From positions 1,751,849-1,815,848 of the forward strand of contig CBDBLX010000002.1 of assembly GCA_965207445.1 (NCBI GenBank): 64,000 bases of DNA, in the 5' to 3' direction. The position numbers and the translations under genes were made by a program. Below the pieces are notes generated by a model, which worked only from the letters and a program-made list of their open reading frames with translations, ran no database searches and was not told the DNA's origin. This DNA comes from Nitrosopumilus sp. (GTDB lineage Archaea; Thermoproteota; Nitrososphaeria; Nitrososphaerales; Nitrosopumilaceae). The first letter of the stretch is position 1, and each line of letters begins with the position of its first letter. Below are positions 2,576 through 56,901 of this stretch, one piece after another.

Positions 2576-6801
<4,226 letters not shown>

Positions 6802-29579: not shown

Positions 29580-32099
29580 GTAAGCGTTCAGGTCTAATTA
29601 TTGATGATCATAAGCAGGCACGCCTGCACGGGTCAATTAATGATATCACAGAGTATAATCCAGAATCGAGTGTGTCTAGATGAAAGGTGATGGGTGCGAT
29701 AATCCGAATTGTAAGTCATGTAAATTTTAGTAGTTGATATGATGTAAAATTTTAGGTGTTGTGATTAAATGATGCAGGTAAGTTGACCATGTAGATGAAT
29801 AAATTTTTGTTATTTAGTCATATTATGACATGTCGTGCGGCAACGTAGAGTCCGCATGAAACCGTGAAATTCCTTGCAATCATACTTTGATAGTTACGGA
29901 CGTATACTGTCTTCAGTAGATTGCTTTGTGTTTATCATTATCGGCGGAGGTATTCCAGAGGTAAAGATGTCCCAAGATTTATCTGCAGACATTTTAATGA
30001 TCGCGTCATATGCAGATGTTCCGTTTTTTCTACAAGTTCTAAAGAATGTCTGTAATCTGCCAAAGTTGCGTGCTGCAGTCCAGTTTGGAAATGGTCCTTT
30101 TCTTTTACTTTTGGACACAAGGACATCGCGTACATTATGCTCTGTATCATTGTTGTGTAGTGGGACTCCGGGGTATTTGATGCCTGTAAATACATGATCT
30201 CTTGCATTTTTCATTGTTGTAGCAGCCGTGTCCTCTATCATGTTTGATGCTTTGTCATATTTTGCCAAGAGTTGGGTTATTTTTTGTTGTACGGATTGAT
30301 CCAATCCTTTTTCTTTTATGATGTTTAGGTCACATGCACTCTGCATTGGGCCCCCGGCATATGCGGTGAATAATTTTGCGTTTGCTTTGGCATCTACAAA
30401 TATCTCACTGAGAAGTATGTGTCTGGTGCATTCTGGAGAATCAAACTCATTGTCCATTGCAGCATCTTCTACTTTGCGCGATATGTGTACTGTACATCGT
30501 TGAAAATCAAAGTTGTGCCAAGAGTATCCTTGGTATCCGTCACGAACATTTGGTCTGTTTGTGCCCCACTCTAGAAACATCTGCATCTCAGCTGTATACT
30601 TGTGTTCTACTGCCTTGTAATGCTCTGTTTTGTTTGTATTGGCAGTTAGCATCTGTATGTTGTCTTTTTTGACTTTGTGCGGTGACTCGTCACTTTTACT
30701 GTATGGCTGCATGGATGCCACTTCCATGATATGCACGTTTTTTGGTTGTGTGACAGATGATGTCCAGACTGTACTGTAACGAGTTTGTAGTGCCTCACTT
30801 TGGGCATACGTGTTCTCTCTAGTACGGTCATCTGCATCATAATCATCTAAAATGTCTGCACCCTTGCCCACTTTCCAACCGCCTGCAGGCTCAATAGGCA
30901 TCCGACATATACGCAAGTCATCTTCATCGATTACAAGTGGTTTTTCAATTGGCGAGTGTATAATTCGACTATCAACTAAATTTGCAGTTGCACTGACACA
31001 GTTTGACATGGCACCGATCGATATGTGCAGGTGTTCTCTATCTTTGATGTAACCTTGTGCAGTACGTACACTAGTGCCGCCGTTGTTGTACATGTTTATC
31101 AATGCACGCTCATTTACCAAAAATGCAGATCCGCTGATTGCATCTGTATCAGGTACGTATTCTTGACCGCATTGTGGGCATATTTCATGATACCACACGT
31201 ACATCAGAGTACGCCATACTCCATCGATATCTTGGCCAAACACTCTTTTGCGCACACACGAACCCTGAATCATGTCTGCTCTGCCACAACATGCACTCAA
31301 TCCAACTTTAAAAAGTATGGTCTTCTCGCACTTGCCCTCACGTGACTTGCCAACATGACCTGGCTGACCTCCGGGGTTTTTTGGCAGTTTTTGTAACAGA
31401 TCGCTATCCCCACTTGTCACATCCCCACTGTTCGTGTCACTGCTGCTCACAGACTCGTTGCGCTTTTTGGTCAGATGAGTTGCAAGTTCTTTTTGAAACT
31501 TTGCACGTTTGTCACCATATGGCTTGGATTTGGATGGACTGCCATTATATCCATACTCTATTGCAAATTTTTGTTGCAGTCCTGATAATTCTACCTTTAA
31601 TCGCTCTGCCAACTCGTCTTTGTTTTGATTTTTTGCTACAAGACCTAATATGGTCTCCACTGCCACCTCCATTGCACTCTTGAACAAATTCTCAATTGCT
31701 GTCTTTTCTTGATTTAACTTTGCATTATCATTGCGCAAAAGAACCATATCTTGATTTAATGCAACATCTCTCTCTTTCATATAGCCAATCATATCAAACA
31801 ATTCTACAATCTTGTCGTTTAATTCATCAATCGTGCAGTACGCCGCGTCTCTTTCGGCACGTATGCGATCAATCTCTAAAGGCATCACACTTGCACCTCC
31901 CATCTGATCGCATGTATCATGGTTAAATTCCCATTGTACAATATTGCATTGTTGATGTTTCTATTTGTCATTTTTGTCGGATAATGACAAATAGCGATAT
32001 CTCCTTATAACCATGTTGTCTGTATATTTAATATCGTGCTCGAGGGTTGAAACAAACGTGCCTATTTATGATCATCAATAATTAGACCTGAACGCTTAC
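29580..32099 (-). mobile_element. Complete IS66-family element (single ORF, ISBst12-like organisation)
   Basis: 34-bp perfect TIR GTAAGCGTTCAGGTCTAATTATTGATGATCATAA; 8-bp TSD ATATATAC (29572-29579, 32100-32107). Confidence 0.95.
29894..31903 (-). CDS. IS66-family DDE transposase (TnpC-like)
   Basis: Coiled-coil N-terminus, GGQPGH, CPQC, DES, RDGYQGY, QRCTVH, NNDTEHNVR. Confidence 0.9.
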   Translation of the reverse strand: MGGASVMPLEIDRIRAERDAAYCTIDELNDKIVELFDMIGYMKERDVALNQDMVLLRNDNAKLNQEKTAIENLFKSAMEVAVETILGLVAKNQNKDELAERLKVELSGLQQKFAIEYGYNGSPSKSKPYGDKRAKFQKELATHLTKKRNESVSSSDTNSGDVTSGDSDLLQKLPKNPGGQPGHVGKSREGKCEKTILFKVGLSACCGRADMIQGSCVRKRVFGQDIDGVWRTLMYVWYHEICPQCGQEYVPDTDAISGSAFLVNERALINMYNNGGTSVRTAQGYIKDREHLHISIGAMSNCVSATANLVDSRIIHSPIEKPLVIDEDDLRICRMPIEPAGGWKVGKGADILDDYDADDRTRENTYAQSEALQTRYSTVWTSSVTQPKNVHIMEVASMQPYSKSDESPHKVKKDNIQMLTANTNKTEHYKAVEHKYTAEMQMFLEWGTNRPNVRDGYQGYSWHNFDFQRCTVHISRKVEDAAMDNEFDSPECTRHILLSEIFVDAKANAKLFTAYAGGPMQSACDLNIIKEKGLDQSVQQKITQLLAKYDKASNMIEDTAATTMKNARDHVFTGIKYPGVPLHNNDTEHNVRDVLVSKSKRKGPFPNWTAARNFGRLQTFFRTCRKNGTSAYDAIIKMSADKSWDIFTSGIPPPIMINTKQSTEDSIRP

Positions 32100-37262: not shown

Positions 37263-40088
37263 CTATTCGCGCGCCGCTAGCGCGTCTGCAATCTGTGGCC
37301 ATAGTGGGCTGCTGTACTTTTCGGCGTTAGTGCGGGCCTCTGCTGCGGTCATCGGGTTGTCGTGGGTAATCTCACCAAAGGCAGCTAGGACGCGGTTCCA
37401 GCGGTCCACGTGCGCATCGCCGTGCTGTGTCTGAGCCGCCTGCGCCCTTACCTTGGAGACGAGCTCCGGGTCTATGGCGGGCGGCGCGTCTGGCTCAGTC
37501 GGTACATCTGGTGGCGTCTGCGGCCCGTCTTGTTCTGCTGCCGCCTCTAGTAATGTCAGCACGTCTGCAATCAGGGGCCACAGTGGGCTGCTGTACTTTT
37601 TGGCGTTGTCGCGGGCCTCTGCTGCAGTCGTCGGGTTGTCGTGCGTGATGTACCCAAACGCGGCCAGTACGCGGCTCCACCTCTCCACGTGCGCATCACC
37701 GTGCTGCGTCTGGTTGGCCATCACAGTCACGTTGGCGACCAGCGCTGGGTCTATGGCGACTGCCGTCAGATTCTGAGCCTGGGCGAGCTTGTTGTACACG
37801 GGCGGTGGCTGCATCAGGCTTGACGTCGTCCCGGTGTCCTGGACGTCCACAGTCCAGCTTGCAAATTGTCCCAGCGTGTAGCCGGCGCCTGGGTTTATCG
37901 TGAGTGTAACATTGTTGACGTCTATGACGCCGTCATCTATGGTCGGGACCTCCAGCGTATACGAGCCGATCGGCGGAATCTCCACGATGCGCCAGCCCGC
38001 ATCAGAGGCGTTCAGAATCCCGCCGGCGCCCGAAAGGGTGACGTTGACTGGCAAAGGCGACAGGGGTGCGGGGGACGCGTTGATGCCAAAGGAGACGTGG
38101 TCACCCTCTGAACCACCGCCTGATATACCAATTGATACCTCGGGTGGTGGTGGTGGGGAGTTATTGACATGGGGGCTGTCTGCCACTGAGATCGTCACGG
38201 TGTTTGCAGAGCCGACCTGGTAGCCGGCCCTTGAATGTAACGTAATTTTGATGGTGCCGGCAGGGTTGTTGTCGTTGCCGTTGCTCTTTGTGACGATGCC
38301 GCCGCCGGGATTTTGATTTTTGCCCTGTGCAATCAGTACGTCATTGTTAAAGGAACTAGAAAATGAATTATCACTCGAAACGGCTCCGGTGATAGACAGG
38401 CTTACTCTAGGATAGATGTCAGAACAAGCCAAGTACTCTGATTTGACCAGTCCAGCAAGGTTGACCGTGTCGCCCTCTGTCACCGTGTCCGGAATGACAC
38501 TTTTATCAAGCCAGAAGACGGGGCCGTCAGGGTGCGGTTTGTGTTCAATCAGCGTCATCCTCTGCCAGTTCTCATCGCCGTCTCGTATCTGGTAGTCTTT
38601 ACTGGGTTTTAGTCTAAACTCTATCCAATTCTGACCAGAGGGGTTGCAATCCCTTACCGTCTCAGACTGAAAGTAGTCGACTCTGCCGTGCACACCAAAT
38701 ATGTGCATCATATTGTTGGACGCTTCAAGTATATGGCCACTGTCTCTAGTCTCGAACATTACTGGCAGCGCAGTGCCTGAGATGTGCGGCGGGTCCACGT
38801 GTATGGGTATCGACACCTTGCGGCCCTCAAAATAAGAGCCAGATGTGTCCAGTGTGACGCACGGTTTGTCTGTGGTGCAGGGAGGAGGAGGCGGTGGAGG
38901 TGGAGGCGGGTTGGGGTCCGGGTCGTTGTCTCGAATGGTAAATGTGACAGTCGACGGCTCACCTACGATGTAACCATCCCCGGGAAGCAGAGTGTACGTT
39001 ATAGTGCCGTCTGGTTCATGGACATTGTCATCATCTGTGACAAGTATCATTCTATTAGCTTGTACATCACCGGCGTTAATTGGATTTTCAAAAATAACGT
39101 TAGGTCCTACAGGCCTATACACAGGTATTAGAACGTCACCTAATTCAACAACAAAAGCTCTAACCGTTATATCAACGAGTGAGGGATTAGATAGATGTAT
39201 GTAAGTTCTAGTATTGCCACCCTCAGTCTGCTCCAGAGCCCGGGATGGAGATAGTGTAACAGTCGGTATGACATAAGCAGGCACATCCTCCGTGGTGACT
39301 CTGAATATTGGAGATATGCCATACGAGTATCTAGCGGCCTGCGTATACTTGCCGTGCTCGTTGCGGCTTTCACTTGACTCGCCAGGTGTGTCTCCTGCGT
39401 AAAAGTCATTATAGTTGTCAGCTATCTTGCTATTGCTACCAAGCCAGTATATCGGTACGTCTACTCCTTCTTGAGTGTAAGTGTTACTCCTGACGCTGTC
39501 GCGATCAGAGTGACCGAAATGCAGTACACGAAAGTACTCGGAGAACTCGCGCATCGCAGAGGGCTCTGAGTTTGCAACACTTACTGTCCGTTTATACACA
39601 TAATAACAATAATCACTGCTGTCTCCATTTATGTCAGTTCCCTCACCATTATTGTTCCTTTTAACAATATCCCAATAGACATCTGAGCCGACTGTCTGGC
39701 CATAATAACCATAACACTCAACATCAGGATCATCGGTTATATGATAGTACGTCGCCTTGCCGTACGTAAAGATGTTGGATGATTCAATCAGGTCCTGTAT
39801 CTTTGTATCCGTAAATGAATGGCCCTCGGATGGTGAGAACAGCAGTCTGAACGTGTCCCCGTCTGCCAGGCCATTGGGTGTATAATCCCAGTCAGCAGGC
39901 ACTGCAACTATTGTCTGGGCGTAGGCTTGCTGATCAGATGGTAAAAGTGAGATTGCTGTTACTGTTAGTATGGCTAGTATGATAGGTAATAAAACGCGAC
40001 GCTTGGTGTGTGATCTATTACTGCCTGCCTGCCTGCCCCCCCCCCCGAATGAGTGTGTACAGTTGAGTGGGTGGCGCGTAGTAATCAT
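37263..40088 (-). CDS. Large secreted/surface adhesin-like protein (Calx-beta-like repeats, Pro-rich linkers, duplicated C-terminal domain)
   Basis: Hydrophobic signal (VLLPIILAILTVTAISLL); DDNVHEPDGTITYTLLPGDGY-type repeats; twice QTQHGDAHVxRWxRVLAAFG; GC well above the backbone. Confidence 0.75.
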   Translation of the reverse strand: MITTRHPLNCTHSFGGGGRQAGSNRSHTKRRVLLPIILAILTVTAISLLPSDQQAYAQTIVAVPADWDYTPNGLADGDTFRLLFSPSEGHSFTDTKIQDLIESSNIFTYGKATYYHITDDPDVECYGYYGQTVGSDVYWDIVKRNNNGEGTDINGDSSDYCYYVYKRTVSVANSEPSAMREFSEYFRVLHFGHSDRDSVRSNTYTQEGVDVPIYWLGSNSKIADNYNDFYAGDTPGESSESRNEHGKYTQAARYSYGISPIFRVTTEDVPAYVIPTVTLSPSRALEQTEGGNTRTYIHLSNPSLVDITVRAFVVELGDVLIPVYRPVGPNVIFENPINAGDVQANRMILVTDDDNVHEPDGTITYTLLPGDGYIVGEPSTVTFTIRDNDPDPNPPPPPPPPPPCTTDKPCVTLDTSGSYFEGRKVSIPIHVDPPHISGTALPVMFETRDSGHILEASNNMMHIFGVHGRVDYFQSETVRDCNPSGQNWIEFRLKPSKDYQIRDGDENWQRMTLIEHKPHPDGPVFWLDKSVIPDTVTEGDTVNLAGLVKSEYLACSDIYPRVSLSITGAVSSDNSFSSSFNNDVLIAQGKNQNPGGGIVTKSNGNDNNPAGTIKITLHSRAGYQVGSANTVTISVADSPHVNNSPPPPPEVSIGISGGGSEGDHVSFGINASPAPLSPLPVNVTLSGAGGILNASDAGWRIVEIPPIGSYTLEVPTIDDGVIDVNNVTLTINPGAGYTLGQFASWTVDVQDTGTTSSLMQPPPVYNKLAQAQNLTAVAIDPALVANVTVMANQTQHGDAHVERWSRVLAAFGYITHDNPTTAAEARDNAKKYSSPLWPLIADVLTLLEAAAEQDGPQTPPDVPTEPDAPPAIDPELVSKVRAQAAQTQHGDAHVDRWNRVLAAFGEITHDNPMTAAEARTNAEKYSSPLWPQIADALAARE

Positions 40089-40164: not shown

Positions 40165-41555
40165 CAGTAGTTCGCAATGTGTTTTATATGATTTTATTTG
40201 AATAATCTACAATGTCGTTAAATGTTAATGATCATACTTGATCAGATCAAATAGAAAGTGTAATATATGGGAATATTCTAGTACCTCTGACTAAGTATGA
40301 AAAATGAGATACTAGAACATCAATATGAATTAGGACAAGTAAATTATAAAGTTTTACGAAAACGATTCAACGATCTCGGACTAGACATATCAACTAGATA
40401 TAACAGCAAATATGGTGCGGATGATTATCTTGGCACACTTGCCACCATGTCACTTGACAACATGTGCGTAAATGCAGCAACACACAAAAGAAAATGCAAT
40501 GAGGCTAACTATTTTAGAAAAGGCGAGCGCATAAACATACCATCTGAAAATACTGTGCTCAAGCCTAAAGAGTGCAGATCTAGAGAAAGTAAACCAATGG
40601 GGTGACAAGAACGTCAAAATAATGCTCAATAATGCCAGAAAACACAACATGCTCAAAAAAGGCATGGCACTATTGCAATTGATATGACCGGATGGGAATA
40701 TTATGGCAAGGCACTCAAACCTGAGATGCTAAAAACAAAGCCCAAAAATGGTACTGCGAGATTTCATTCATTTATGACAGCACAAATGGTAAATCAAGCC
40801 AGGTAACATACCTTTGTTTGCACATCGTGTGACCAGTAAGGATAAAATGGTCACAGTCATGCGTAAAATCATTGAAAAATTAATTCGAGAGGATACACGT
40901 CCGGAACTTGGACTCTTTGATCGAGGTTTTTACAATGTTGCATGCATAGATGAACTTTTGCGCTTGCGCCTGTCTTTTATAATGCCGGCAATTAAAAATA
41001 AGCGCATACAAAAATATATTTTAGAAGTTCACAACAAAAAGAGAAAAACTGCACCCGTCATTGAGATGCGTGATAAAAACAAAAAAAGTAGCAAGTTCAC
41101 ATTACTTGTCGTCAGAAAAAATAATGCCAAAAAAACTGATGAAACAGTCGATCAGTATGTAGCATTTACCACAAATATGAAAATCACTAACAAAAGCAAA
41201 CTCATCAAAACCATCCCAGAGACTTATCGCAAGCGCTGGATAATAGAGACAGGATTATAGTGATAAAAAACACGACTCCAAAGATAACTAGCAACGCCTT
41301 GCAGCTTTGATTACTGTTGATATTTTTTGGAATGTTATTATATGGTTTATGGGTAATGGAAGGGTACGAAAATTACGGCGGACTTGTAGATGAGAAATTA
41401 TTCACAATGAATGCGTTTGTAGATTCAATTGCCTGTTCAATCAGAAGACTGCTTCGGTGGGAATTGGAGCACGGTGGTTCCTTACCATTGTAAATCTGCC
41501 GCACTGCATAATTAGAAATAAGATCATTAAAAATTGAGCACATTGCGAACTACTG
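40165..41555 (+). mobile_element. ISH3/IS4-type insertion sequence with pseudogenised transposase
   Basis: 17-bp TIR CAGTAGTTCGCAATGTG/CACATTGCGAACTACTG; AAGT on both flanks; fragments AIDMT, FDRGFY, YRKRWIIETG interrupted by stops and frameshifts. Confidence 0.92.
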
Positions 41556-45204: not shown

Positions 45205-48093
45205 TTACAGTGACAGAATTTGCATTATCTCAGACTTTACAGATTCAACTGCCAAGTCCCGTTTATCAGAGTTTGGACCACCTCCTTTAGAGAGTGACAT
45301 ATTATTTCCACTAGAACCACCACCAAGTATATCCGCGGCCAGTGCAGTAAATTTAGACGCATCAATACCACATGTTATTGCCTTAGGCCCTACATAAGAC
45401 ACGACACGCGTGGTAGGCCCTGATGTAAAAAAACCCACGTATGCTGAGTTTGGTACATGTTTTGTCAATAGTTTACCAAGACTCATGTGAAAGCGTTCAT
45501 CACGATCATAGTCTGTTAACATACAGATCTTGATGAAGTGCGTATTTGTAGTGTTTGTAGATTGATTGCCAGTTGTTATATCAGCAGTAGCAACATTATT
45601 GTCATTGTCATCATTGGGGTGATGGGGGTAGTTGGTGTGATTGGTGTTGTTGTTATTGTTATTGTGATTTGTATCACTATTACTAAAAGCATCAACATAA
45701 GATACAAACACAGCAACACCACCTACATCATGTATACCACTTGCAACATTTGATATACGATTTACTAGATCAGGTACAAGTTCGCGAGTAGTCTCTCTTT
45801 CTAGTTCACGTCGTTTGAGAGTCTCCTCACGTTTTGTTTCTGCTACTCTTTGTTCCTTTGCTACATATTTTTGTTTTTCATCATATAATGTGGCAACATC
45901 ACCAGAAACAAATTCAATTCTCACTACACCATCTTGAATGCGCTTTGTACGAGTGATTCGAATCTTTTGTATCTTGCCAGTACTCGATACATGTGTACCA
46001 CCACACGCTTCGATATCCTTATCAGATATTGATACGATACGAACTGCCTTTACAGGGACTATACCTCCCTGATATATGCGAAATCCATATTTCTGCTCTG
46101 CATCACCTCGCTCCATATACTGTATGGAAACTGCAAGATCATCGCGTATCATCTGATTTGCAGTATCCTCAATCTCCTTTACTTGTAATGTAGATAAAGG
46201 TGAGTGGTGTGTGATATCAAGTCTAGCGTGATCAGCATCTTTGAATGCAGAGTGCTGCCATACCCACGACCCTAATACGTGACGTGACGATGCATTGATG
46301 ATATGAGTTGATGTATGATGTTTTGTAATTGCATCCCGGCGACTCTTATCAATTATACAGTGTACGCGCTCACCTACAGATACTGTACCGCTTTTGAGAA
46401 TATGTACAATTATGTTTGCGTGTTTTTCCACATCAATTACATCAAAATTGGCAATCGTCCCATGGTCTGGTTCCTGCCCACCACCGCGTGCATAAAATGA
46501 CGTACGGTCAAGTACAACTTTATTGTTCTCATACCACAGTACAGTAGCATCAAATTCAAAGGGGTCACTATTATAAAAGAGAAGTTCTGTATCAGGTATA
46601 TCATCAAGTGCAATCTCAGCAAGTGGTGCAATTTTACGTGATTGATGCAGTTCTGATATACGAGTATAAAACGCAGATGGCACCTCAGACAATACACCTT
46701 CATCTACCAAATATTCAGGTGTAATACCATCTGATTCATACAAGGTGACTAGTGTATTCATGTCCGGTGTTTGATTACGCTCGCGTACACGTGAGATCTT
46801 TTTTTGCATCTGTAAACGAGATTCCAAATACCTGTCACTTTCTATATGCAATATTTTTTTGACATCATCACGCTTGTCAATCAGCTCAGGATATGTATTA
46901 GCAAGATATGTAATATGTGCATCTACTATATCATCTACATCAATTAAATGTGATGCGGCACGTAGTTTATGAATACGCTCATTTACTCGTCTAATCATCA
47001 TGCGCAAATTATACCCACCACCCACATTGCTTGGTAGAGCACCATCTGCAATTGCAAATATCAAAGTACGTAAATGATCAGCTATCATATATACATCCTC
47101 AAGGGGCGTTATGATATTTGATGCCATCTGCTCTGAGATCCCAGTAGTGCTCAATGATTTTTTCCTAACAGTCCACAAGTCATCAGAGCGCTCCAGCATC
47201 TTTGCCACACCAGTATAGTACTCTTTTAGCATATGTGCATCAGCATCAAAACCTATGGCATCCTTGAGGAGAGTATCGACTTGGTTGCCAAAACAACAGT
47301 CGTATGCAGTTGGCGTTCCCATCGTAATCCATGCAAAACGTTCCAACCCAGCACCCATGTCAATTATACGATTATCAAGTGTTGTATGATTCTCTAGCGT
47401 TCCTTGAAACTCGGTAAACACTGCATTTCCCAACTCTAAACCACGCACAAAATACTCTAGTGATGGTCCAAACGAGCCACCGCCTGCCCACACATCCTCT
47501 ACAAATACGATCTCAGCAGGGTTTATGCCAAACCTACGTGTCAATAGTTCATAGTCAAGTCGTATACATTCGTCTTTCCAGTATCCACCTTTTATGTCAG
47601 GAATACAGTGTTGTCCTACCATACAAAAGCTCGAAAAGTGACGTCCCGTAACACCCACATTCTCCAAATCTTTGAATCGCAGACAGGTCTGTGGTACCAC
47701 AAGTGGGTTTGCAGGAAACTCAAAGACTACCTTTGATCCCATTACTCTCTGAAAGTCTACAATCGATGCAATGGTAAAATATAGATCATCACGCCATCTA
47801 CACACAACAGGATATCTTCCAATTATGTCATGTTTGTTTTCTGAGAAAAAAGAGCTTATCTGCTTCCATGATTCAGTATAGTCAAATCGTTTTTTAGTCG
47901 GTGGATCACCGATAAATGAATATGTGTCAGGTGCATCATCAGGACAATCAACTCTATCAGGGTCAAGTGTCCAAAAGAAACGACCACATGTACGGCAAGA
48001 CTTGCGCGTGAATCCAGAGTCCTCAAAGAGATCAACAGTATAGTAACGTTGTGGTTCTGATGAGAATTTTTTGAGGATTTCGTTTTTTTCCAA
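45205..48093 (-). CDS. alaS: Alanine--tRNA ligase
   Basis: GLELGNAVF, IDMGAGLER, IADHLRT, HTSTH...EACGGTH editing site. Confidence 0.97.
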   Translation of the reverse strand: MEKNEILKKFSSEPQRYYTVDLFEDSGFTRKSCRTCGRFFWTLDPDRVDCPDDAPDTYSFIGDPPTKKRFDYTESWKQISSFFSENKHDIIGRYPVVCRWRDDLYFTIASIVDFQRVMGSKVVFEFPANPLVVPQTCLRFKDLENVGVTGRHFSSFCMVGQHCIPDIKGGYWKDECIRLDYELLTRRFGINPAEIVFVEDVWAGGGSFGPSLEYFVRGLELGNAVFTEFQGTLENHTTLDNRIIDMGAGLERFAWITMGTPTAYDCCFGNQVDTLLKDAIGFDADAHMLKEYYTGVAKMLERSDDLWTVRKKSLSTTGISEQMASNIITPLEDVYMIADHLRTLIFAIADGALPSNVGGGYNLRMMIRRVNERIHKLRAASHLIDVDDIVDAHITYLANTYPELIDKRDDVKKILHIESDRYLESRLQMQKKISRVRERNQTPDMNTLVTLYESDGITPEYLVDEGVLSEVPSAFYTRISELHQSRKIAPLAEIALDDIPDTELLFYNSDPFEFDATVLWYENNKVVLDRTSFYARGGGQEPDHGTIANFDVIDVEKHANIIVHILKSGTVSVGERVHCIIDKSRRDAITKHHTSTHIINASSRHVLGSWVWQHSAFKDADHARLDITHHSPLSTLQVKEIEDTANQMIRDDLAVSIQYMERGDAEQKYGFRIYQGGIVPVKAVRIVSISDKDIEACGGTHVSSTGKIQKIRITRTKRIQDGVVRIEFVSGDVATLYDEKQKYVAKEQRVAETKREETLKRRELERETTRELVPDLVNRISNVASGIHDVGGVAVFVSYVDAFSNSDTNHNNNNNNTNHTNYPHHPNDDNDNNVATADITTGNQSTNTTNTHFIKICMLTDYDRDERFHMSLGKLLTKHVPNSAYVGFFTSGPTTRVVSYVGPKAITCGIDASKFTALAADILGGGSSGNNMSLSKGGGPNSDKRDLAVESVKSEIMQILSL

Positions 48094-48277
48094 GTGTTGG
48101 ACAGTTTGTCAATGTCATTATCGTCAATTTATACGATTCTTGTTTAAAGTAGTGTGTTGTATGGTATCAATTCAGGTCAAATCGGCAGTCAGAAACGGTA
48201 CCGGGATTTTGCTATGGGCGGCAAAACGAAAGATGTATTAAACTAAATGCGCGCTTAATTTAATCCTGAAACGAAAA

Positions 48278-48423
48278 GAGCCTGGCAGGGTCTCACTTCT
48301 TTCTGCTACTGTCAGTCCAAAAAACAAGGCCAGATTGTCTACAAGATTCTTCGTGTGAATCGGTTTGTCATCCGACAGGGACTTTAACGGTAGGAGCATT
48401 ATGTCAAACAGTGAGGGAATCAA
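48278..48423 (-). pseudogene. Mrr N-terminal domain fragment truncated by the left inverted repeat
   Basis: IPSLFDIMLLPLKSLSDDK..LVDNLALFFGLTVAERSETLPGS resembles Mrr_N; the frame runs into the IR. Confidence 0.7.
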
Positions 48424-48579
48424 GTAACGCGCATTCCGGATTGGGTGGTTTTAAATTATTCTAGAGGTTTGTGACTATGGACAGATATTGAATACTTGTA
48501 TTCCGTGATTCGTGTTTGGCAGATGGTCTCAAGAGTTTACAAGCGTCCAACCTCTTGCGACACTAAGCATATCGATATG

Positions 48580-48669
48580 ATTAAAGATCCGATATTTTGA
48601 TTGATGTTCATCTCGAAGTTGAGCACATATTATGAATACAAAATATTAGAAAACTATCGGATCTTTAAT
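48580..48669. repeat. Family A 90-bp element, copy 2
   Basis: Near-identical to 321-410. Confidence 0.85.
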
Positions 48670-48684
48670 GAAACTATTAAACAT

Positions 48685-50139
48685 CTAGATCTTTGCGATG
48701 ATCTCGTCGAGGCTTATCGGGACATATCCTATATACTCGGAGCAAACGTTGATCGTTTTGTTTCTTCTGTTGATGTGAGGGTATGTAACAGGATGGGTGT
48801 TGTGCTTGGCCCCGTGTATGATCCACCCGTCCCAGTATGGCGGCCTGTAAGGATCGTGCATCAAAAGAAATTCGAAGCCTCTGTACCTTATGGGAAATCT
48901 GTCCTTTATCACCTCTGCTTTCGTAATAGCGTCGGTGTCGCGGTTTCCTCGTATGAAGCGCACTTCGCCGTTTAGCTTTGAAAGCCAAAAGTCTATGGAT
49001 CTTCTTTTTCTCCCATGTGTAATATCGCCTAGGTAATACACTCTGTCGCCCTCCCCCACTCTACTGTTCCAGTTGTCGACCAGTATGCGGTTCATCTGCG
49101 GAGTGGACGAGAATGGCCTCCTGCAGCGCCTTATAATGCTTGTATGATCGAAATGCAGGTCACTAAGCACGAAAACAGTCCCATGGCGTCTGCTTTCGTC
49201 TGTGAAACGCAGACGTTTTCCTGCATTTGTGGCAGATCTTTTCACCATCTTCTCAAAAGCCAACATCGTCTCCTTGAATAATGTCATGTCGAGCGCCTCG
49301 CGCCTGCTGAGCATTCTCCGGAGTATCAAGTCATACTCGCATACTATCGTCCGGTTTTTACCGATCACGCTTACCCGCAACGCGTGCTGTTTATGATCTG
49401 GTAGCTTCCAACTTTCCAAAAATTCCAGTATTCTACCAAATTCTCTCTTGATTCCGTCCTCTGTTTTCTCCGACAGATCCGTGTCGAGGCATATAGTAGC
49501 ATGGGGTTTAAAAGATCCTTTCAGATCGTATGCTTTGAGCTCGCAGAATCTACGAAGACTCTCGACGAGTTTTTGCTGCATTTCCTTCAATTCAGCTGAT
49601 GGAAGTACACGCGCGTGTACGGCACGTCCCGGAAACTCACCAAAATCGCCAAGGCGGAAGCTCACCAGATCATAATCTTTTACTACGTTCTGCACGGTGT
49701 CTATGAGATCTTTCTGGTTCGATGTACTTAATTCTCCCATTATGGTGATATGTGGGACGTACCTGAATTTGCTTTTGATGTCAAAGTTTATCTTTATGGC
49801 CTTTACAAGATCCCTGAGTTTCTCGTTTAGTCGCCCTCCGACCCGGATCTCTACCAAATATTTTTCGGATGTGAGATGGCCGCCGTCGAGACTATTTCGG
49901 GTACCGTTCTTGATCGCGGTTCTAGATTTTCTAGTCCTTACACGCGGACTGGTGCCTGTTGTTTTGGATGCTGAAAATCGATCGACTTGTTTTCTGTTGG
50001 CGCGAGTTTTCCGTGTGTGAACATATGAAATATGGCGCTTGTGTGTAGTCCGCACCGTGCGTTTGTGTCCATATGTTGCACTTTGAGAATGATTTGGATC
50101 CGTGTGATGTACATCCATATCTGTGCTGATGAATGACAC
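48685..50139 (-). CDS. 2H phosphoesterase (LigT-like) fused to calcineurin-like metallophosphoesterase, paralog 1
   Basis: PHITI and PHATI 2H motifs; SDLHFDH, LGD, GNRD (GNHD variant), HDP, HGAKH; start uncertain. Confidence 0.88.
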   Translation of the reverse strand: MSFISTDMDVHHTDPNHSQSATYGHKRTVRTTHKRHISYVHTRKTRANRKQVDRFSASKTTGTSPRVRTRKSRTAIKNGTRNSLDGGHLTSEKYLVEIRVGGRLNEKLRDLVKAIKINFDIKSKFRYVPHITIMGELSTSNQKDLIDTVQNVVKDYDLVSFRLGDFGEFPGRAVHARVLPSAELKEMQQKLVESLRRFCELKAYDLKGSFKPHATICLDTDLSEKTEDGIKREFGRILEFLESWKLPDHKQHALRVSVIGKNRTIVCEYDLILRRMLSRREALDMTLFKETMLAFEKMVKRSATNAGKRLRFTDESRRHGTVFVLSDLHFDHTSIIRRCRRPFSSTPQMNRILVDNWNSRVGEGDRVYYLGDITHGRKRRSIDFWLSKLNGEVRFIRGNRDTDAITKAEVIKDRFPIRYRGFEFLLMHDPYRPPYWDGWIIHGAKHNTHPVTYPHINRRNKTINVCSEYIGYVPISLDEIIAKI

Positions 50140-50514
50140 ACTTCTTAAAAATACCTAATTCTGTAGTGCAGTCTCGAAACGATTGAGGATACGGGTATCG
50201 AATTTACTCCCATAATGAGGGCCGTTATTATGAGAAGGGTGAATAGGAATTGGCGCGGAAGCCTCTCTGACGGGGACTAGGTCTGCTATTAAAAAAAGAC
50301 ATTTGCATCTAATTGATTTTTCATTAGATGGAGGAAAGTGTCGACGATATGCATACGTTGTGGGACAAACCACTGTATGCTGCGGCATGTGTGAATGCGC
50401 CCCGGTTTGTTCTCCACATTTGACGCGTCGGAAATACATTCCTGTATGTTTGCGCCAATTCTGTGCCTCATCCAGTAGCGCACGTTGCTATACGTTGCCT
50501 AGTTCATCCACGGG

Positions 50515-52878
50515 CTACGCGGCTTTTCTCTTCGATATCCGCGCTATCTCTTTCCGTATGATGTCTTGGTCAATCGCGTCCAGATCCCGGTTGACTGCGA
50601 GCCGTGCGGAAGCTTCAATCGCGTCCTTGATGATGTCGGCGCATGAAAACCCGTCGGTTAGTTCCGCCAGCTGCTCAAAGTCGACGCTCTTGTCGTACGG
50701 GCGGTTCATCAACCCTATCTCAAACAGTGACTTGCGGGCCTCAAAGTCCGGAGGGGGGACATATATTTTCTTGTCAAATCTGCCGGGCCTCAAGGCAGCA
50801 GGGTCCATCCTGTCGACGTAGTTTGTCGCGCCGACCACCAGTATCCTCCTCTCGGCTGCGTTGTTGAGCTGCATGAGAAACTCGTTGACCTCCTCCTCCT
50901 TGTAGGTACTCATGTGGAAAGTCTTCGACCTGCTGGGAATCAGCCCGCTGATCTCATCAAAGAAGATTATTGCAGGCGCGCTCTCTTGAGCCGTCGAAAA
51001 CGCGCGTCCTATGTTGCCGACTGCACCGTGTATGTAGGGCGTTGCAAGATCCGAATGCGCCACCTCAAAGAAATTATAGTTTAGTTCCTCGGCCAGCTTT
51101 CTGACCATAAACGTCTTGCCGCAGCCAGGTGGGCCGTATAGGAGTATGCCATTGGGTATGGTAACCTTGAATTTTTCAAATTTCTCCGGGTGCTTGAGCG
51201 GATTTATCACGTCGGATATCAGGAGATTTTTTAGTTCCTTCATGCCGGCGACGCCTTCCAAGCCCCTTGAACAGGCATCATTACTACCGTTTTCCGCGCG
51301 CGGCCGGGATCGTAGCGCGGGTTGTACGTGGTGGCGATTCGCACTTATTTTTTTGGATATCCGCGCTATCTCTTTCCGTATGATGTCTTGGTCAATCGCG
51401 TCCAGATCCCGGTTGACTGCGAGCCGTGCGGAAGCTTCAATCGCGTCCTTGATGATGTCGGCGCATGAAAACCCGTCGGTTAGTTCCGCCAGCTGCTCAA
51501 AGTCGACGCTCTTGTCGTACGGGCGGTTCATCAACCCTATCTCAAACAGTGACTTGCGGGCCTCAAAGTCCGGAGGGGGGACATATATTTTCTTGTCAAA
51601 TCTGCCGGGCCTCAAGGCAGCAGGGTCCATCCTGTCGACGTAGTTTGTCGCGCCGACCACCAGTATCCTCCTCTCGGCGGCGTTGTTGAGCTGCATGAGA
51701 AACTCGTTGACCTCCTCCTCCTTGTAGGTACTCATGTGGAAAGTCTTCGACCTGCTGGGAATCAGCCCGCTGATCTCATCAAAGAAGATTATTGCAGGCG
51801 CGCTCTCTTGAGCCGTCGAAAACGCGCGTCCTATGTTGCCGACTGCACCGTGTATGTAGGGCGTTGCAAGATCCGAATGTGTCACCTCAAAGAAATTATA
51901 GTTTAGCTCCTCGGCCAGCTTTCTGACCATAAACGTCTTGCCGCATCCAGGTGGGCCGTATAGGAGTATGCCATTGGGTATGGTAACCTTGAATTTTTCA
52001 AATTTCTCAGGGTGTTTGAGCGGATTTATCACGTCGGATATCAGGAGATTTTTTAGATCCTTCATGCCGGCGACGCCTTCCAAGCCCCTTGGACCGGCAT
52101 CACCACCGCGTATTTCAGTACGCGTCAGAGACTGTCGGGATCGCCGCTCTTGCGGGCCCGTGGCGTCTCTGCGACCTTTCCTGTGATTCCGGTCCAGTTT
52201 TGTGTGCGGGCGCGGGTTGCGCCGGCGTGTCTCTGGGCCGGCATACAAATCTCTGGGCCTTGTGGGTGTGACGCCATGCCCTGTCAAATACGTGAAGACT
52301 GGTTTTTTGTCACGATATAGAACCAGTTCGGGTGTGGTATCTTCGTGTTTCATCTCCAAGGATTCAATATCTCCGCTTATATCCTTGAATCGCTTACCGG
52401 TGTTGCCGACAGCCAACGTAACGTAAAACTCAAAATCATCCCCGCTACTGTGATCGTACTTTGTTGCTTGGGCGTTAGGAAGCAACGCCTGTGCAATGTC
52501 GTATCTCATCTGCTTCAATGATTCGTTGGGTTTTATTTTGATGGTTATGGCACCGCGGTCTCGTGCAAGTCGCTTGCTATGGACGCGTGATGATAACCCG
52601 TCTGTTGAGAATCTTGCATCGGGGTGTGTCTCAATCACTGCAATTATCACATCTATTATCTGTCGTTCCATCATACGCGTTGAGAACGGCCCGAATAGGG
52701 AAATGTATGGGAACCTCCTTTCCTTGTCTGAAAGAATTTCTTGAACGTATTGCATGTGTCTCTGCGCATCACGCCGCAAGTCACCGCGCAGTCTGATTCC
52801 AACTAACCAGGGTACTTCTCTTGTGGTTTGCACGGTCAATCTATTCGTATGACAATAATTAATGTTTATGAGTAGCAC
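50515..52878 (-). CDS. Degenerate 2H domain fused to two near-identical classical AAA+ ATPase domains
   Basis: N-terminus paralogous to the neighbours but with PYISL and FYVTL; twice GPPGCGKT, FFDE, ATN..DPAALRPGRFD. Confidence 0.9.
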   Translation of the reverse strand: MLLININYCHTNRLTVQTTREVPWLVGIRLRGDLRRDAQRHMQYVQEILSDKERRFPYISLFGPFSTRMMERQIIDVIIAVIETHPDARFSTDGLSSRVHSKRLARDRGAITIKIKPNESLKQMRYDIAQALLPNAQATKYDHSSGDDFEFYVTLAVGNTGKRFKDISGDIESLEMKHEDTTPELVLYRDKKPVFTYLTGHGVTPTRPRDLYAGPETRRRNPRPHTKLDRNHRKGRRDATGPQERRSRQSLTRTEIRGGDAGPRGLEGVAGMKDLKNLLISDVINPLKHPEKFEKFKVTIPNGILLYGPPGCGKTFMVRKLAEELNYNFFEVTHSDLATPYIHGAVGNIGRAFSTAQESAPAIIFFDEISGLIPSRSKTFHMSTYKEEEVNEFLMQLNNAAERRILVVGATNYVDRMDPAALRPGRFDKKIYVPPPDFEARKSLFEIGLMNRPYDKSVDFEQLAELTDGFSCADIIKDAIEASARLAVNRDLDAIDQDIIRKEIARISKKISANRHHVQPALRSRPRAENGSNDACSRGLEGVAGMKELKNLLISDVINPLKHPEKFEKFKVTIPNGILLYGPPGCGKTFMVRKLAEELNYNFFEVAHSDLATPYIHGAVGNIGRAFSTAQESAPAIIFFDEISGLIPSRSKTFHMSTYKEEEVNEFLMQLNNAAERRILVVGATNYVDRMDPAALRPGRFDKKIYVPPPDFEARKSLFEIGLMNRPYDKSVDFEQLAELTDGFSCADIIKDAIEASARLAVNRDLDAIDQDIIRKEIARISKRKAA
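50534..52091. repeat. 736-bp direct duplication (50534-51269 and 51356-52091), period 822 bp
   Basis: DNA nearly identical with a handful of substitutions. Confidence 0.95.
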
Positions 52879-53338
52879 GAATGCATGATCAAGCCGGAGT
52901 CATTCAACGCGGGATAATTTGACTAATCCACCCGTTGGAATGACCTACAATCTCTAAATTTTGTCCTCTGACCATATCTGTATACAATACACGGGCGTGG
53001 CTTCTGTCATTAGGGTGGGTTGAGCAGCCCGGCCAAATATTGGACACCTGCCAAGAATAATCAGGACGCTTTCTAGAGCACGAACAGACGTTGTAACCAT
53101 CAAGATTTAGAGCCGGATCTCGTAGTGACATCTGGGAGGGAAAGACATGGCAAAGGACACAGATAAGAAATTGCGGATAAGATTGCCGTGCCTGTGAGAG
53201 TGGTCTCAGTTTTGAAGTACACTCTCACGTAGTATTCTGCGTATATCAATAGACTTTATGGCATGGTCTACATTGGAGTGTCGCGTCATGTGACATGGTT
53301 TTCTGTGTAAAAAACTGGCCCATGCAATTCACGCACCT

Positions 53339-54589
53339 TTATTCGGAGATCTTTGCAATGATCTCGTCAAGGTTCATTGGAGCGTATTTGGTATATTCTA
53401 CACAAACGTTCACCGTCTTGTTTCTTTTGTTAATGTGGGGGTATGTAACAGGATAGTTGTTGTGCTTGTCTCCGTGTATGACCCACCCGTCCCAGTCCAG
53501 TGTTCTGTCAGGGTCGTGCATCAAAAGAAACTCGTAGCCGTCATACTTTATGAGAAATCTGTCCTCTATGACCTCTGCCTTTGTAATGACGTCAGTGTCG
53601 TGGTTGCCGCGTATGAACCGTATCTCGCCGTTCAATCTAGAGAGCCAAAAGTCAATTGGTCTGTTTTTTCTTCCGAATGTCATGTCGCCTAAATAATATA
53701 CCCTGTCGTCTTTCCTTACCCTGTCATTCCAATTACTGATCAGTGTGTGGTTCATATCATAGACGGATCTGAACGGCCTGTCACTGTATTTTATGATGTT
53801 TTTGTGGTCAAAATGCATGTCACTGACCACAAAAATACTTCCTCTACGCCCACTCTCGTCTGTGAATTGGCGAGCATCGTAACTCGGCTGGTTTATCTTC
53901 AACAGACGCAGGAGCCGCCCCAGATTCGTGGAGCGGAATTGGCGAGCATCGTAACTCGGCTGGTTTATCTTGGGATCGTCATATAAATTCCGAGGCCTTA
54001 CTGGCGTAACATCATGTCCTACAAGATATGTAAAAACCGGGGACTGCTCACTATACAAAATCAGCTCCGGCTCGATGTTTTCGTGCTTGAATTCATGCGA
54101 TTTGAGTTCTTTGTTTATATCCTTGAAGAGTTTTCCTGTCCTGCCGATCGCTAACGTGGCGTGAAACTTGAAGGCGTTCTTTCCATCCCGATCATACTCC
54201 GACGCTTGAGAGTGCGGCAACAGTTCTTGCGCAATGTCATACCGCATTTGTTTTAGATCTTCATTGGGTATTATTTTGACCATTATAATGCCACGGCCCT
54301 CAGAAAACAATTCACTATTATCAAATGATGAAAATCCGTCTGTTGAGAATCTTGCTTCTGAATATTTCTTGGCCATGCTGATTAACGTGTTTATTATATG
54401 TCGTTCTGCCATGTGCGTAGAAAATGGCCCGAACAGTGTAATGTGTGGAAAACGCCTCTTCTTGTCACGAAAATCATGCTGAACTTCTTTCATGTAGTAT
54501 CGTACATCGGATCGAAGGTTGCCGCGCAGTCGTATGCCAATCAGCCACGACTCTTTTCCTCTACTGGCGCGCATACCAACATCATACAT
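53339..54589 (-). CDS. 2H phosphoesterase fused to calcineurin-like metallophosphoesterase, paralog 2
   Basis: PHITL and FHATL; SDMHFDH, LGD, GNHD, HDP, HGDKH. Confidence 0.9.
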   Translation of the reverse strand: MYDVGMRASRGKESWLIGIRLRGNLRSDVRYYMKEVQHDFRDKKRRFPHITLFGPFSTHMAERHIINTLISMAKKYSEARFSTDGFSSFDNSELFSEGRGIIMVKIIPNEDLKQMRYDIAQELLPHSQASEYDRDGKNAFKFHATLAIGRTGKLFKDINKELKSHEFKHENIEPELILYSEQSPVFTYLVGHDVTPVRPRNLYDDPKINQPSYDARQFRSTNLGRLLRLLKINQPSYDARQFTDESGRRGSIFVVSDMHFDHKNIIKYSDRPFRSVYDMNHTLISNWNDRVRKDDRVYYLGDMTFGRKNRPIDFWLSRLNGEIRFIRGNHDTDVITKAEVIEDRFLIKYDGYEFLLMHDPDRTLDWDGWVIHGDKHNNYPVTYPHINKRNKTVNVCVEYTKYAPMNLDEIIAKISE

Positions 54590-54618
54590 GCATCAATAAT
54601 TAACATTTAGGTACAACC

Positions 54619-54771
54619 GAGGTTGGTGCGTAATTGACATTAGTCCTGCCTGTGACCCTTCTATGAGATTATTGAATAATTTAATTTATACATATAAAAC
54701 TCTGGTGATATTTGCAGATGACTTTGCAAGTACGATGCAGGTGGCGATTTGATGAATTACGCACCAACCTC
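54619..54771. mobile_element. 153-bp MITE (family D)
   Basis: 17-bp TIR GAGGTTGGTGCGTAATT/AATTACGCACCAACCTC; perfect 9-bp TSD GGTACAACC (54610-54618, 54772-54780). Confidence 0.92.
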
Positions 54772-55150
54772 GGTACAACCATAGTAACTGTTCATCTCAT
54801 GTGACCGCATCCAGAGATGGACGTATAAGATGTACTTGGATTCGGGAAGGTGAACAACTGCCAATCCCGTACACAAAAGACAACCACTGGATCCGCCAGA
54901 ATCGCGCTGGTGTCAAAGGCCGTCACAGGTGACCCAAACTGTTTATGCAACCCCGCAGACCGCCTCTGGCATTGCTTCACCAGACCTCTAACCTGCCCGA
55001 GATTTTGCCGACGTGGTTGCCATCATACATAAAGCAGATCTTAGGTCCGGCTACGGCCGACTGCAAGGCGTGATTGTCGCGGACAAGATTTCAAGTTGGG
55101 GTTCTGATGAGTGTCTAACACGTTGGTCACTGCTGTGTTGTGTTGCCATA

Positions 55151-55900
55151 TCATTCACCGGGTCGTCCGCTCCAGTACGCTTCCCCCTCTGCGGCGGTGG
55201 CGCACTTGGCCCCGAACAGGTCGTTATTCACGCCGAGAAATATGCATACACCACCGTCGCACGCGGTTGCCCCTCCGGTGTGTGACGGGTACAGTAGATT
55301 GAACCTGTGGCCCTTGCTGTCCATCCAGATGTCTGTCGCCTCGTTGGGTCCCATGTGGTCTACACCTTCTACCCACGCCAAGTTCTCCGCCACCTGCTCG
55401 TGCGTGGCAAAGCCGTATTCGCCTTTCATGGTGTATGGACAGGTCCCGGTGTACGGGTTCACGTGGTCGTGGTAGTCGTACTCCAGAGTGTCGTGGACAC
55501 GGGCAAGTGCAAGATTGTATGCCCTTGCATCGAACGCGATCTGATGTCTGTCATGTTCCGCGCGTATGCCGTTGATATATTCTAAGTTGGCCCTTGATTC
55601 CTCCTCTGCAGTGTAGAATACGGGATCAAGTATTCCGGGCCATTCCAGTATGCCACCTACTCCTCCTGTCTCGGAAGCGTTGTCAGCCGTGCCGAACATG
55701 TGAGGCTTGTATCGGTCAGAGAACCATTCAATTCCATACATGATACCCCAAATTACAGCAGTGGCAATTATACTAAATATGATGAATTTGCCGATCCCAG
55801 ACATGATGCCGCGTGTGCGGCCGCCCCTACGATATCGCCGCCTCCGTGGCTTCCCGCGTCTGTTGCGCCGTGGTTCTCCCCCGAAAGTGTTGCGACGCAT
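55151..55900 (-). CDS. Membrane-anchored CAP (SCP/Tpx-1/PR-1) domain protein
   Basis: Arg-rich N-terminus and TM helix; INGIR, AENLA, WMDSKGHRFNLL. Confidence 0.85.
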   Translation of the reverse strand: MRRNTFGGEPRRNRRGKPRRRRYRRGGRTRGIMSGIGKFIIFSIIATAVIWGIMYGIEWFSDRYKPHMFGTADNASETGGVGGILEWPGILDPVFYTAEEESRANLEYINGIRAEHDRHQIAFDARAYNLALARVHDTLEYDYHDHVNPYTGTCPYTMKGEYGFATHEQVAENLAWVEGVDHMGPNEATDIWMDSKGHRFNLLYPSHTGGATACDGGVCIFLGVNNDLFGAKCATAAEGEAYWSGRPGE

Positions 55901-56388
55901 GGCCCCTCATTTCAGGCAGAATCCTGAGTTATTGTCATAATACTGATGACAGAATCTTGTCATGTCACACCTCTCGGAGTCTTCGATAAATGCCTTTGGG
56001 GGCTTTGCACCTGATAGTCTGCGCCACGGTCGTGCGCGCACACTATTCATGATTACTTTGGACCGTTTTCGTTTCAGGATTAAATTAAGCGCGTACTTAG
56101 TTTAACACATCTTTCGTTTTGCAGCCCATAGCAAGGTCACGGTATCGTTTGTGACTGCCGATTTGACCTGAGTTGATACTGGTGTATAATTCGTAAATTT
56201 AGACTATGAGGTCGTGTCCATGTGCTGAGCCGTATAACTTAGACACTCTGCTATTTGAGCCACTTACACACCAAATATTTTTCATTTATTTTGGAATTAT
56301 AAATAATGTGTTTTAGTTTGTTAATGTTGAGAGTCAAATAACTATCATACATACTCAACATATTAAACATAGAACAATTTACTATAGA

Positions 56389-56901
56389 TTGATGTTTAGT
56401 AAGAAAACAAAGTTAGATGAGGGAACCAACATATTCTCTGTAAAGAAGAATGATGGGTTCAACGACTTTATCTTTGGAACCGTAACAGGAATCAAAGGCA
56501 GAAAGGTAGGAGTCAACGGCATAATTGTAAATCCTGTGGGACTCAAAAACAAGCTTGCTCAAGGAAAGACTGGCCAAAGATCAAAAGAGATACTAGAGAA
56601 TCCAACACCAGACAACATAGTATTGGCACTCATATACAGAGTTGAGTATGAGAACTTTACAGACATACTAGACCTAGATGAAGATAAATGTGACATAATT
56701 CCACCGAGAATATATCTAATGTTAGATGGTTGGGTACGTGAGTCCTTGCCAGAATTAATCAACAAAGTTCTCTCATTGCCACCAGGTCCAGAAAGGGATG
56801 ATGCAAAACGAGTATTGCGACTCAGAATGGACACATTAACAGACAAGCATCTAAAAAGAACACTATATTCAGTATGCAGAAGTCTCAAGATACTCAACTA
56901 G
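56389..56901 (+). CDS. Hypothetical protein
   Basis: 170-aa ORF with backbone-like composition. Confidence 0.75.
   Translation: MMFSKKTKLDEGTNIFSVKKNDGFNDFIFGTVTGIKGRKVGVNGIIVNPVGLKNKLAQGKTGQRSKEILENPTPDNIVLALIYRVEYENFTDILDLDEDKCDIIPPRIYLMLDGWVRESLPELINKVLSLPPGPERDDAKRVLRLRMDTLTDKHLKRTLYSVCRSLKILN

Follow-up and report, generated by a model that had tools for sequence, protein, structure and literature searches.

A 2H-fold domain with tyrosine at both catalytic positions, fused to tandem AAA modules in Nitrosopumilus sp.

The 64,000-nt stretch of Nitrosopumilus sp. DNA analysed here (contig CBDBLX010000002.1, positions 1,751,849 to 1,815,848; hereafter the window) carries on its minus strand a gene whose product joins a domain of the 2H fold to two AAA ATPase modules (open reading frame (ORF) 50515-52878). 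Both catalytic histidines of the 2H domain are changed to tyrosine, and the altered domain is called 2H* in the following. On balance we lean towards the view that this N-domain is a duplicated copy of a neighbouring 2H domain which lost catalysis and was retained to serve a classical-clade AAA+ unfoldase as its recognition domain, because the changes affect two catalytic residues and leave the remaining cleft conserved, because selection acts on the domain as it does on its paralogue, and because a parallel fusion with an apparently dead enzyme exists. Conversion to a pseudoenzyme had already been proposed in a first-pass annotation of this DNA; the His-to-Tyr pair fixed in the fusions, the purifying selection and the 2H fold speak for that proposal, while its picture of a CDC48-like motor and of a conserved Y-x-S/T motif did not hold.

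Tyrosine at both motifs of the 2H* domain

The two motifs of 2H* read PYISL and FYVTL, where the paralogue encoded at 53339-54589 has PHITL and FHATL. This difference, pointed out in the first-pass annotation, is borne out by our alignment, and a third paralogue not mentioned there (48685-50139) likewise has histidine in both motifs (PHITI and PHATI). Each of the two changes amounts to a single CAC->TAC transition. The remainder of the domain stays alignable, as had been stated, with 56% identity between 2H* and the 2H domain of the 53339-54589 paralogue (E 2.9e-71), and 2H* matches PF13563 (2'-5' RNA ligase / 2H) with 29.3 bits at a cut-off of 27 (E 1e-6). Residues are numbered throughout in the 787-aa frame; the true start of the gene is probably GTG 52833, giving 772 aa, since the database copy of the protein (P0002) has 772 aa and the orthologues P0005 and P0006 begin with MQTTR/MQIKR.

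A word-indexed search returned six relatives of the fusion protein, the window's own copy included, and a scan of one genome per species (185,579 species representatives) added one further fusion, from the Nitrosopumilus metagenome-assembled genome (MAG) L013, at 82% identity. The AAA-fused set thereby comprises seven sequences (the window protein, P0003-P0007 and P0038). With the 2H* domain as query, phmmer run exhaustively against 1.84 billion representatives gave only 31 matches at E<=0.001, 26 of which were aligned together with the two window paralogues to count histidines, after omission of P0002 as the window's own protein and of P0024, P0030, P0035 and P0037 as fragments or multi-stretch matches. 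JGI metagenome contigs yielded no relative of the domain. Tyrosine occupies motif 1 in all six AAA-fused sequences that contain this motif and motif 2 in all seven, whereas the family rows not fused to AAA have histidine at motif 1 in 27/27 and at motif 2 in 27/27 of the rows containing the respective motif. The Tyr/Tyr pair thus coincides exactly with fusion to AAA. The alignment also addresses the possibility, raised in the annotation against its own proposal, that homologues might keep histidine or vary freely at these sites, and it does not refute the pseudoenzyme idea.

Both changes moreover belong to a short list. Between the fusion clade (six sequences) and the nearest histidine-bearing clade (four sequences), 9 of 182 ungapped columns show fixed differences, namely I26V, K53E, H58Y, F98R, G107D, H152Y, A153V, L171I and I186V. 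The chance of finding both catalytic histidines among nine such columns is 9*8/(182*181) = 0.002, so that the histidine changes go beyond chance. The residues that are near-invariant across the family are all retained in 2H* (R29, P57, G63, G94, R125, F149, T154 and F164, numbered as alignment positions plus 20).

What the orthologues do not preserve is the third residue of motif 1, which is S, S, S, S, V and A across the six, leaving two of them without a hydroxyl group at this position, while motif 2 is uniformly Y-V-T. The conserved Y-x-S/T expected by the annotation is therefore found with respect to tyrosine, fixed at both motifs, and not with respect to its partner in motif 1. In place of the two His-x-Thr/Ser motifs that define the enzymes, 2H* has Y-I-S and Y-V-T, and its orthologues Y-I-[S/V/A] and Y-V-T. 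For E. coli ThpR, the mutant data of PMC4201822 give H43A, T45A, H125A and R130A as inert and T127A as fully active. With both histidines lost and the motif-1 hydroxyl also lost in two orthologues, canonical two-histidine catalysis is, by comparison with these ThpR data, very unlikely to persist in 2H*.

Despite these changes, the domain is not decaying. Between the window and L013 (dS about 0.6), dN/dS, the ratio of nonsynonymous to synonymous substitution rates, is 0.150 for 2H*, 0.159 for its counterpart in the upstream paralogue, 0.138 for each of the AAA modules D1 and D2, and 0.256 for the basic linker that follows 2H*. 2H* is thus under purifying selection comparable to that on the active paralogue and on the AAA modules. 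An AF2 model built from the family alignment (pLDDT 88, pTM 0.85) places both motifs on long central strands. A Foldseek comparison of this model with the PDB ranked the 2H proteins Usb1 (E 1.7e-5), YjcG, rotavirus VP3 and AKAP18 at the top and also returned plant CPDase and 2H-like mitoribosomal proteins; 11 of the 2H matches have E<=0.001, with TM values of 0.45-0.65. A sequence search of the PDB with the domain gave nothing at E<=1. We are confident from the model that 2H* keeps the bilobed alpha+beta 2H fold with its motifs on central strands. By descent and predicted fold it belongs to the 2H superfamily, and by sequence it fails the defining catalytic motif. It resembles the LigT/ThpR/YjcG-type phosphoesterases (PF13563) in sequence and predicted fold, in carrying its motifs on equivalent strands and in its near-invariant residues, and it differs from them in having tyrosine for both histidines, in the non-conserved Ser/Thr of motif 1 and in being fused to AAA modules, whereas the others stand alone or are joined to a metallophosphoesterase (MPE).

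The AAA modules and their relatives

The ATPase part meets the profiles of the classical AAA clade (PF00004, E 5e-66; PF17862, AAA_lid_3, E 4e-15). GPPGCGKT (Walker A), IIFFDE (Walker B), GATN and RPGRFD occur in both modules, the latter two corresponding to the sensor-1 Asn and the second region of homology with the Arg fingers. PYIHG, in our reading, would mark the pore-loop position as a variant of the aromatic-hydrophobic-Gly pattern. That Walker A, Walker B and the arginine-finger region are intact in both ATPase domains, as the annotation had it, is correct but follows trivially from their being a tandem repeat at the DNA level (50529-51281 versus 51351-52103, period 822, 12 mismatches in 753 nt). 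D1 and D2 of the window protein accordingly share 98% amino acid identity, compared with 88-96% in the orthologues.

In a tree of the modules, grouping follows lineage and not position, with WIN_D1 next to WIN_D2 (support 99/96) and the single-module orthologue P0006 as sister to all others (support 100/100). A D2-specific loop, NRKNS, is common to three orthologues, and the same C-terminal tail occurs in the four with complete C-termini. Since loop and tail are held in common, one older duplication homogenised by gene conversion appears to fit better than repeated duplication, both being possible. The AAA copy number is labile, with two modules in five of the seven orthologues and one in the other two; these two are short-read Logan assemblies, in which a collapsed repeat is possible. 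For the window itself, short-read contigs from runs X1 and X3 (possibly of the source sample) contain the repeat as one 736-nt contig at ~1.6-2.5 times flank depth and a 146-nt junction contig at flank depth, and in two sponge-metagenome runs of other studies contigs of relatives span the junction as well. The depth of the repeat contig and the junction contigs in X1 and X3 and in the runs of other studies indicate that the duplication is real; an assembly artefact was rejected on these grounds and because five of the seven orthologues are double.

The best solved-structure matches of the AAA module are VAT and p97 D2 (E about 1e-84), and identity to CDC48 D2 sequences amounts to 36-42%. The designation as a CDC48-like double-ring ATPase in the first-pass annotation is nevertheless not supported, given that the modules are 98% identical copies, that two of seven orthologues have a single one, that identity to CDC48 D2 stays in the range just given and that TIGR01243, the CDC48 profile, gives 342.8 where its cut-off is 802.65. 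No CDC48 N-domain family is among the Pfam matches listed for the fusion (25 of 46 families), and its N-terminal 205 residues are assigned to the 2H fold. Judged by sequence, the ATPase is a classical-clade AAA and not CDC48 proper. It shares with CDC48, VAT and p97 the classical-clade AAA domain with AAA_lid_3 and the arrangement of two tandem modules behind a distinct N-domain; it differs in lacking the CDC48 N-domain (double-psi barrel and beta-clam), in having single-module orthologues and in that D1 and D2 are near-identical D2-like copies instead of a diverged D1 and D2. Descent of the module from the host's own CDC48 was rejected as well, identity to the two CDC48 genes of the host being 33-37%.

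Much closer relatives are single-AAA proteins of ~350-390 aa encoded on 27 metagenome contigs, 53-70% identical to the module. On the 18 contigs longer than 5 kb their genes lie in a conserved operon (loci L031-L054), in which, among 22 loci analysed, a GrpE-like gene was found in 9, an Hsp70-like gene of ~837 aa in 16, an unrecognised gene of ~530 aa in 16 and DUF6804 in 10, together with a Yip1-like or unrecognised membrane protein followed by the AAA gene (~359 aa). Neither Pfam, NCBIfam nor PADLOC names this Hsp70-GrpE-AAA operon. The ~359-aa family has a beta-rich N-domain of ~95 aa that no Pfam family matches; its weak Foldseek resemblance to a kinase N-lobe (E>=0.016) was not accepted. 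Fusion and operon family have in common the AAA module, its RG[LF]xxVAGM entry and the presence of an Hsp70 gene in the L013 island too. They differ in that the operon proteins combine the beta-rich N-domain with a single module where the fusion has 2H*, in that the L013 Hsp70 is only ~30% identical to the operon Hsp70, and in that the island of the window is without Hsp70; the operon arrangement itself is missing from the window and finds only a loose counterpart in L013.

The nearest non-orthologous AAA modules, at 69-70% identity, are those of P0044 and P0046, which stand behind HD_4, RelA_SpoT and TGS domains (loci L028-L030). Aligned to B. subtilis Rel, these proteins show HDVLRIT for HDVVEDT and VVQIRT for EVQIRT. 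We take the substituted residues to be the Glu-Asp pair of the hydrolase site and the Glu of the synthetase, and on this alignment the RelA/SpoT (RSH) domain of both proteins is apparently catalytically dead. With 2H* and RSH both substituted, fusion of this motor with an apparently dead nucleotide enzyme seems to have occurred two or more times, which supports a non-catalytic recognition role for the N-domain of the fusion. The RSH-AAA proteins thus have the closest AAA module and an N-terminal nucleotide-enzyme domain substituted at presumed catalytic residues, and one of their three loci adjoins the Hsp70-GrpE pair. The RSH-AAA proteins differ from the fusion in the N-domain family, in their single AAA module and in their organisms (contigs of 37-38% G+C), and no 2H-MPE neighbours were seen at their loci.

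Possible roles of the fusion protein

Dead enzyme copies reused as sensors are known in general, as are AAA+ motors with exchangeable N-domains. In the sequence of events we favour, the 2H domain of the upstream paralogue would have been duplicated to give 2H*, and an AAA module brought in from elsewhere would then have been fused to it where the paralogue has its metallophosphoesterase; homology between 2H* and the paralogue extends into the first part of the linker. The likeliest mode of action would be that the tyrosine-lined cleft still binds the phosphorylated ligand processed by the active paralogues, a candidate being an RNA end with a 2',3'-cyclic phosphate or a 2'/3'-phosphate, or a related small nucleotide, and that binding targets or switches the ATPase. 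The two flanking intact 2H-metallophosphoesterases may process the same ends and so cooperate with the fusion, and the basic linker could add affinity for RNA. Neither a Tyr/Tyr 2H domain nor a 2H-AAA fusion was found described in a full-text literature search, the superfamily's 2002 classification (Mazumder et al.) lying outside its coverage.

Several observations weigh against this proposal. The PF13563 score is barely over its cut-off (29.3 versus 27), and the variation of the third motif-1 residue between S, V and A speaks against the phosphate site being intact on this side of the cleft. With only seven orthologues at 68-85% identity, conservation of the tyrosines adds little over background conservation. 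The case for a dead RSH domain depends on the catalytic roles assigned to the substituted residues, and a run search turned up no RNA sequencing run containing the fusion gene.

Instead of a nucleotide, the dead 2H domain might bind protein: the flanking 2H-MPE paralogues, or some other product of the island, would dock on the AAA ring and serve there as its clients, cofactors or regulated partners. In favour of this, the three paralogous genes lie side by side in one orientation, an arrangement kept in two genomes; 2H* stems from the upstream paralogue (56% identity); and a precedent in kind is found in RtcA and RtcB, which are reported to interact with the CARF domain of RtcR, an AAA+ regulator (PMC9650030). 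Docking would leave unexplained why precisely the two catalytic histidines, and almost nothing else, changed, and we consider it unlikely. A complex prediction for 2H* (aa 18-212) and the upstream 2H-MPE (aa 12-416) scored 0.00 against a mark of 0.32 and counts neither way.

The tyrosine pair might also sustain an altered catalysis, as general acid/base or as nucleophile with a phosphotyrosyl adduct, so that 2H* would still be an enzyme. Both sites changed to the same residue, which is kept without drift in all orthologues, the remainder of the cleft is conserved, and in yeast Cpd1 and Arabidopsis CPDase a tyrosine at another active-site position contacts the scissile phosphate (PMC4201822). 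According to the same paper, loss of either histidine or of the motif-1 Thr abolishes activity in ThpR, two of six orthologues have replaced the motif-1 Ser by Val or Ala, the literature search gave no 2H member with tyrosine at the motif positions, and the RSH domain of the sister fusion is apparently inactive too, which together make this explanation highly improbable. Hardly credible at all is that the protein is a by-product, that is, a recent chimera of island recombination whose N-domain decays without a role and whose double AAA is an assembly or replication-slippage artefact, since the very narrow clade (7 sequences, 1 other match among the 185,579 species representatives), the labile AAA copy number and the mobile, GC-atypical island in its favour are set against a dN/dS of 0.15 for 2H* at dS about 0.6, intact frames in 7/7 sequences, and the contig depth and junction reported above, which sponge-metagenome relatives also cross.

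Returning to the non-catalytic recognition domain, a bolder extension, which we regard as quite unlikely, would turn the three genes into a self-contained reader-and-eraser module that acts on a nucleotide signal or on damaged RNA ends. In it, 2',3'-cyclic-phosphate or 2'-phosphate termini (or a 2'-5' or cyclic nucleotide) would be read by the dead 2H domain, which would direct the tandem-AAA unfoldase to the proteins or ribonucleoproteins carrying them, and the flanking 2H-MPEs would remove the mark; the AAA clade, native to atypical Hsp70-GrpE operons, would repeatedly capture dead nucleotide enzymes (2H, RelA/SpoT) as sensors. By analogy only, RtcR, the CARF-AAA+ regulator of RtcAB, likewise has a ligand-binding N-domain on an AAA+ ATPase beside RNA-end-repair enzymes, and it is reported to be responsive to tRNA halves that carry a terminal 2',3'-cyclic phosphate (PMC7790460, PMC10159003). 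RtcR belongs to an unrelated family, being a sigma-54 enhancer-binding AAA+ protein with a CARF and a DNA-binding domain, whereas the fusion pairs an unfoldase-clade AAA with a presumably dead 2H domain as candidate sensor and is without a DNA-binding domain.

Should 2H* recognise a nucleotide signal or RNA ends, sensing of that signal or of RNA damage would be tied directly to protein unfolding in archaea, and the active and dead paralogues of one island would form a natural matched pair for dissecting 2H binding without cutting. Capture of dead nucleotide enzymes by the AAA clade would, if true, represent a previously undescribed coupling of nucleotide sensing to protein unfolding. As a lead, the AAA clade of the Hsp70-GrpE operons with its apparently dead RelA/SpoT domain may outweigh the single fusion gene.

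The island and its surroundings

The fusion gene is the third of four co-oriented minus-strand genes, in transcription order CAP/SCP, 2H-MPE, 2H*-AAA-AAA fusion and 2H-MPE (Table 1). In an alignment of nine 2H-metallophosphoesterase fusions both histidines and the metal-site residues are invariant. The upstream 2H-MPE gene contains in its linker a perfect 36-nt direct repeat with a period of 72 (53864-53899 and 53936-53971), which encodes the repeated peptide INQPSYDARQF and is absent from the L013 orthologue.

Table 1. Features of the fusion gene and of the island around it (window positions; aa, amino acids)
Feature	Position	Strand	Description and basis
2H*-AAA-AAA fusion ORF	50515..52878	-	787 aa counted from GTG 52878
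2H* domain, aa 22-205	52264..52815	-	Pfam PF13563; AF2 pLDDT 88; Foldseek matches Usb1, YjcG, VP3, AKAP18
Tyr58 codon	52705..52707	-	TAC, motif 1 PYISL; His CAC in paralogue
Tyr152 codon	52423..52425	-	TAC, motif 2 FYVTL; His CAC in paralogue
Basic linker, aa 206-262	52093..52263	-	17 K+R versus 7 D+E; probably disordered, from composition
AAA module D1, aa 263-512	51343..52092	-	Walker A at 308, Walker B at 363, GATN at 409, RPGRFD at 423
Inter-module linker, aa 513-536	51271..51342	-	Unique junction of the tandem repeat
AAA module D2, aa 537-787	50518..51270	-	98% identical to D1
Upstream paralogue, 416 aa	53339..54589	-	Intact 2H (PHITL, FHATL) and calcineurin-like metallophosphoesterase; Pfam, alignment
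Downstream paralogue, 484 aa	48685..50139	-	Basic N-terminal tail, intact 2H (PHITI, PHATI) and metallophosphoesterase; Pfam, alignment
CAP/SCP-domain protein	55151..55900	-	Arg-rich N-terminus, hydrophobic segment; 90% identical to CAP gene of the L013 island
GC-rich island, 8.3 kb, between alaS and orf170	48094..56388	.	300-nt windows of 34-58% G+C
Inverted repeat, left arm	48164..48277	.	114 nt
Inverted repeat, right arm	56066..56179	.	114 nt, 91% complementary to left arm

The four island ORFs have 44-56% G+C compared with 36-41% in the flanking ORFs. In two same-genus genomes alaS and the 170-aa gene found here at 56389 are divergent neighbours ~75 bp apart, while in the window they are separated by 8.3 kb. 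A third genome (G096) carries a different 4.3 kb insert at the same site (L020 5685-9969), with genes named by eye as a 533-aa membrane protein with a histidine-kinase-like C-terminus, a 410-aa secreted protein, a 134-aa protein and a 321-aa alcohol-dehydrogenase-like protein. The alaS/orf170 intergenic site looks like an insertion hotspot. The repeat flanking the island (~115 nt) belongs to a dispersed family of six genomic copies (85-94% identical), the others lying at C2:750951, 853604, 1228851 and 1303979, and could be either a MITE-like element (miniature inverted-repeat transposable element) or a small structured RNA; Rfam gave no match for it and nothing credible in 47900-56600. No tRNA was found adjoining the island. 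PADLOC returned generic AAA matches for the fusion (IetA, TRIP13) and nothing for the 2H-MPE, CAP, Hsp70 or VWA proteins, so that no known defence system can be named from its matches.

The order 2H-MPE / 2H*-AAA-AAA / 2H-MPE recurs in L013, within a larger region that is mostly of 46-65% G+C and also encodes two CAP proteins, a 731-aa Hsp70 and a VWA protein. Among 101 genomes sampled from the family, the fusion occurs only in that of the window; a 2H paralogue (54-55% identity) is present in two others, and the one with a full-length frame (G039, 403 aa) is a 2H-MPE. Within the L013 region, the Hsp70 gene (3969-6164) lies just upstream of the 2H-MPE gene and encodes a C-terminal extension with a metalloprotease-like HExxH motif, the VWA protein (50-2026) has a WING-49 domain, and a 276-aa ORF of 31% G+C without a Pfam match (8017-8847) lies on the opposite strand between the 2H-MPE and fusion genes.

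Elsewhere in the window, a Type ISP restriction-modification enzyme of 1430 aa is followed by a DUF790 protein and an XPB-like helicase (2572-6864, 7968-11403). GC-rich ORFs of 169 and 324 aa (14848-16328, 49-52% G+C) and of 941 aa (37263-40088, 53% G+C) are without Pfam matches and possibly imported. Two transposase sequences are also present, one IS66-like (29894-31903) and the other a DDE fragment (40814-41260). The alanyl-tRNA synthetase bordering the island (45205-48093) has a low-complexity insertion rich in Asn, His and Asp close to its C-terminal third and is only 65-66% identical to the alanyl-tRNA synthetases of five same-genus genomes.

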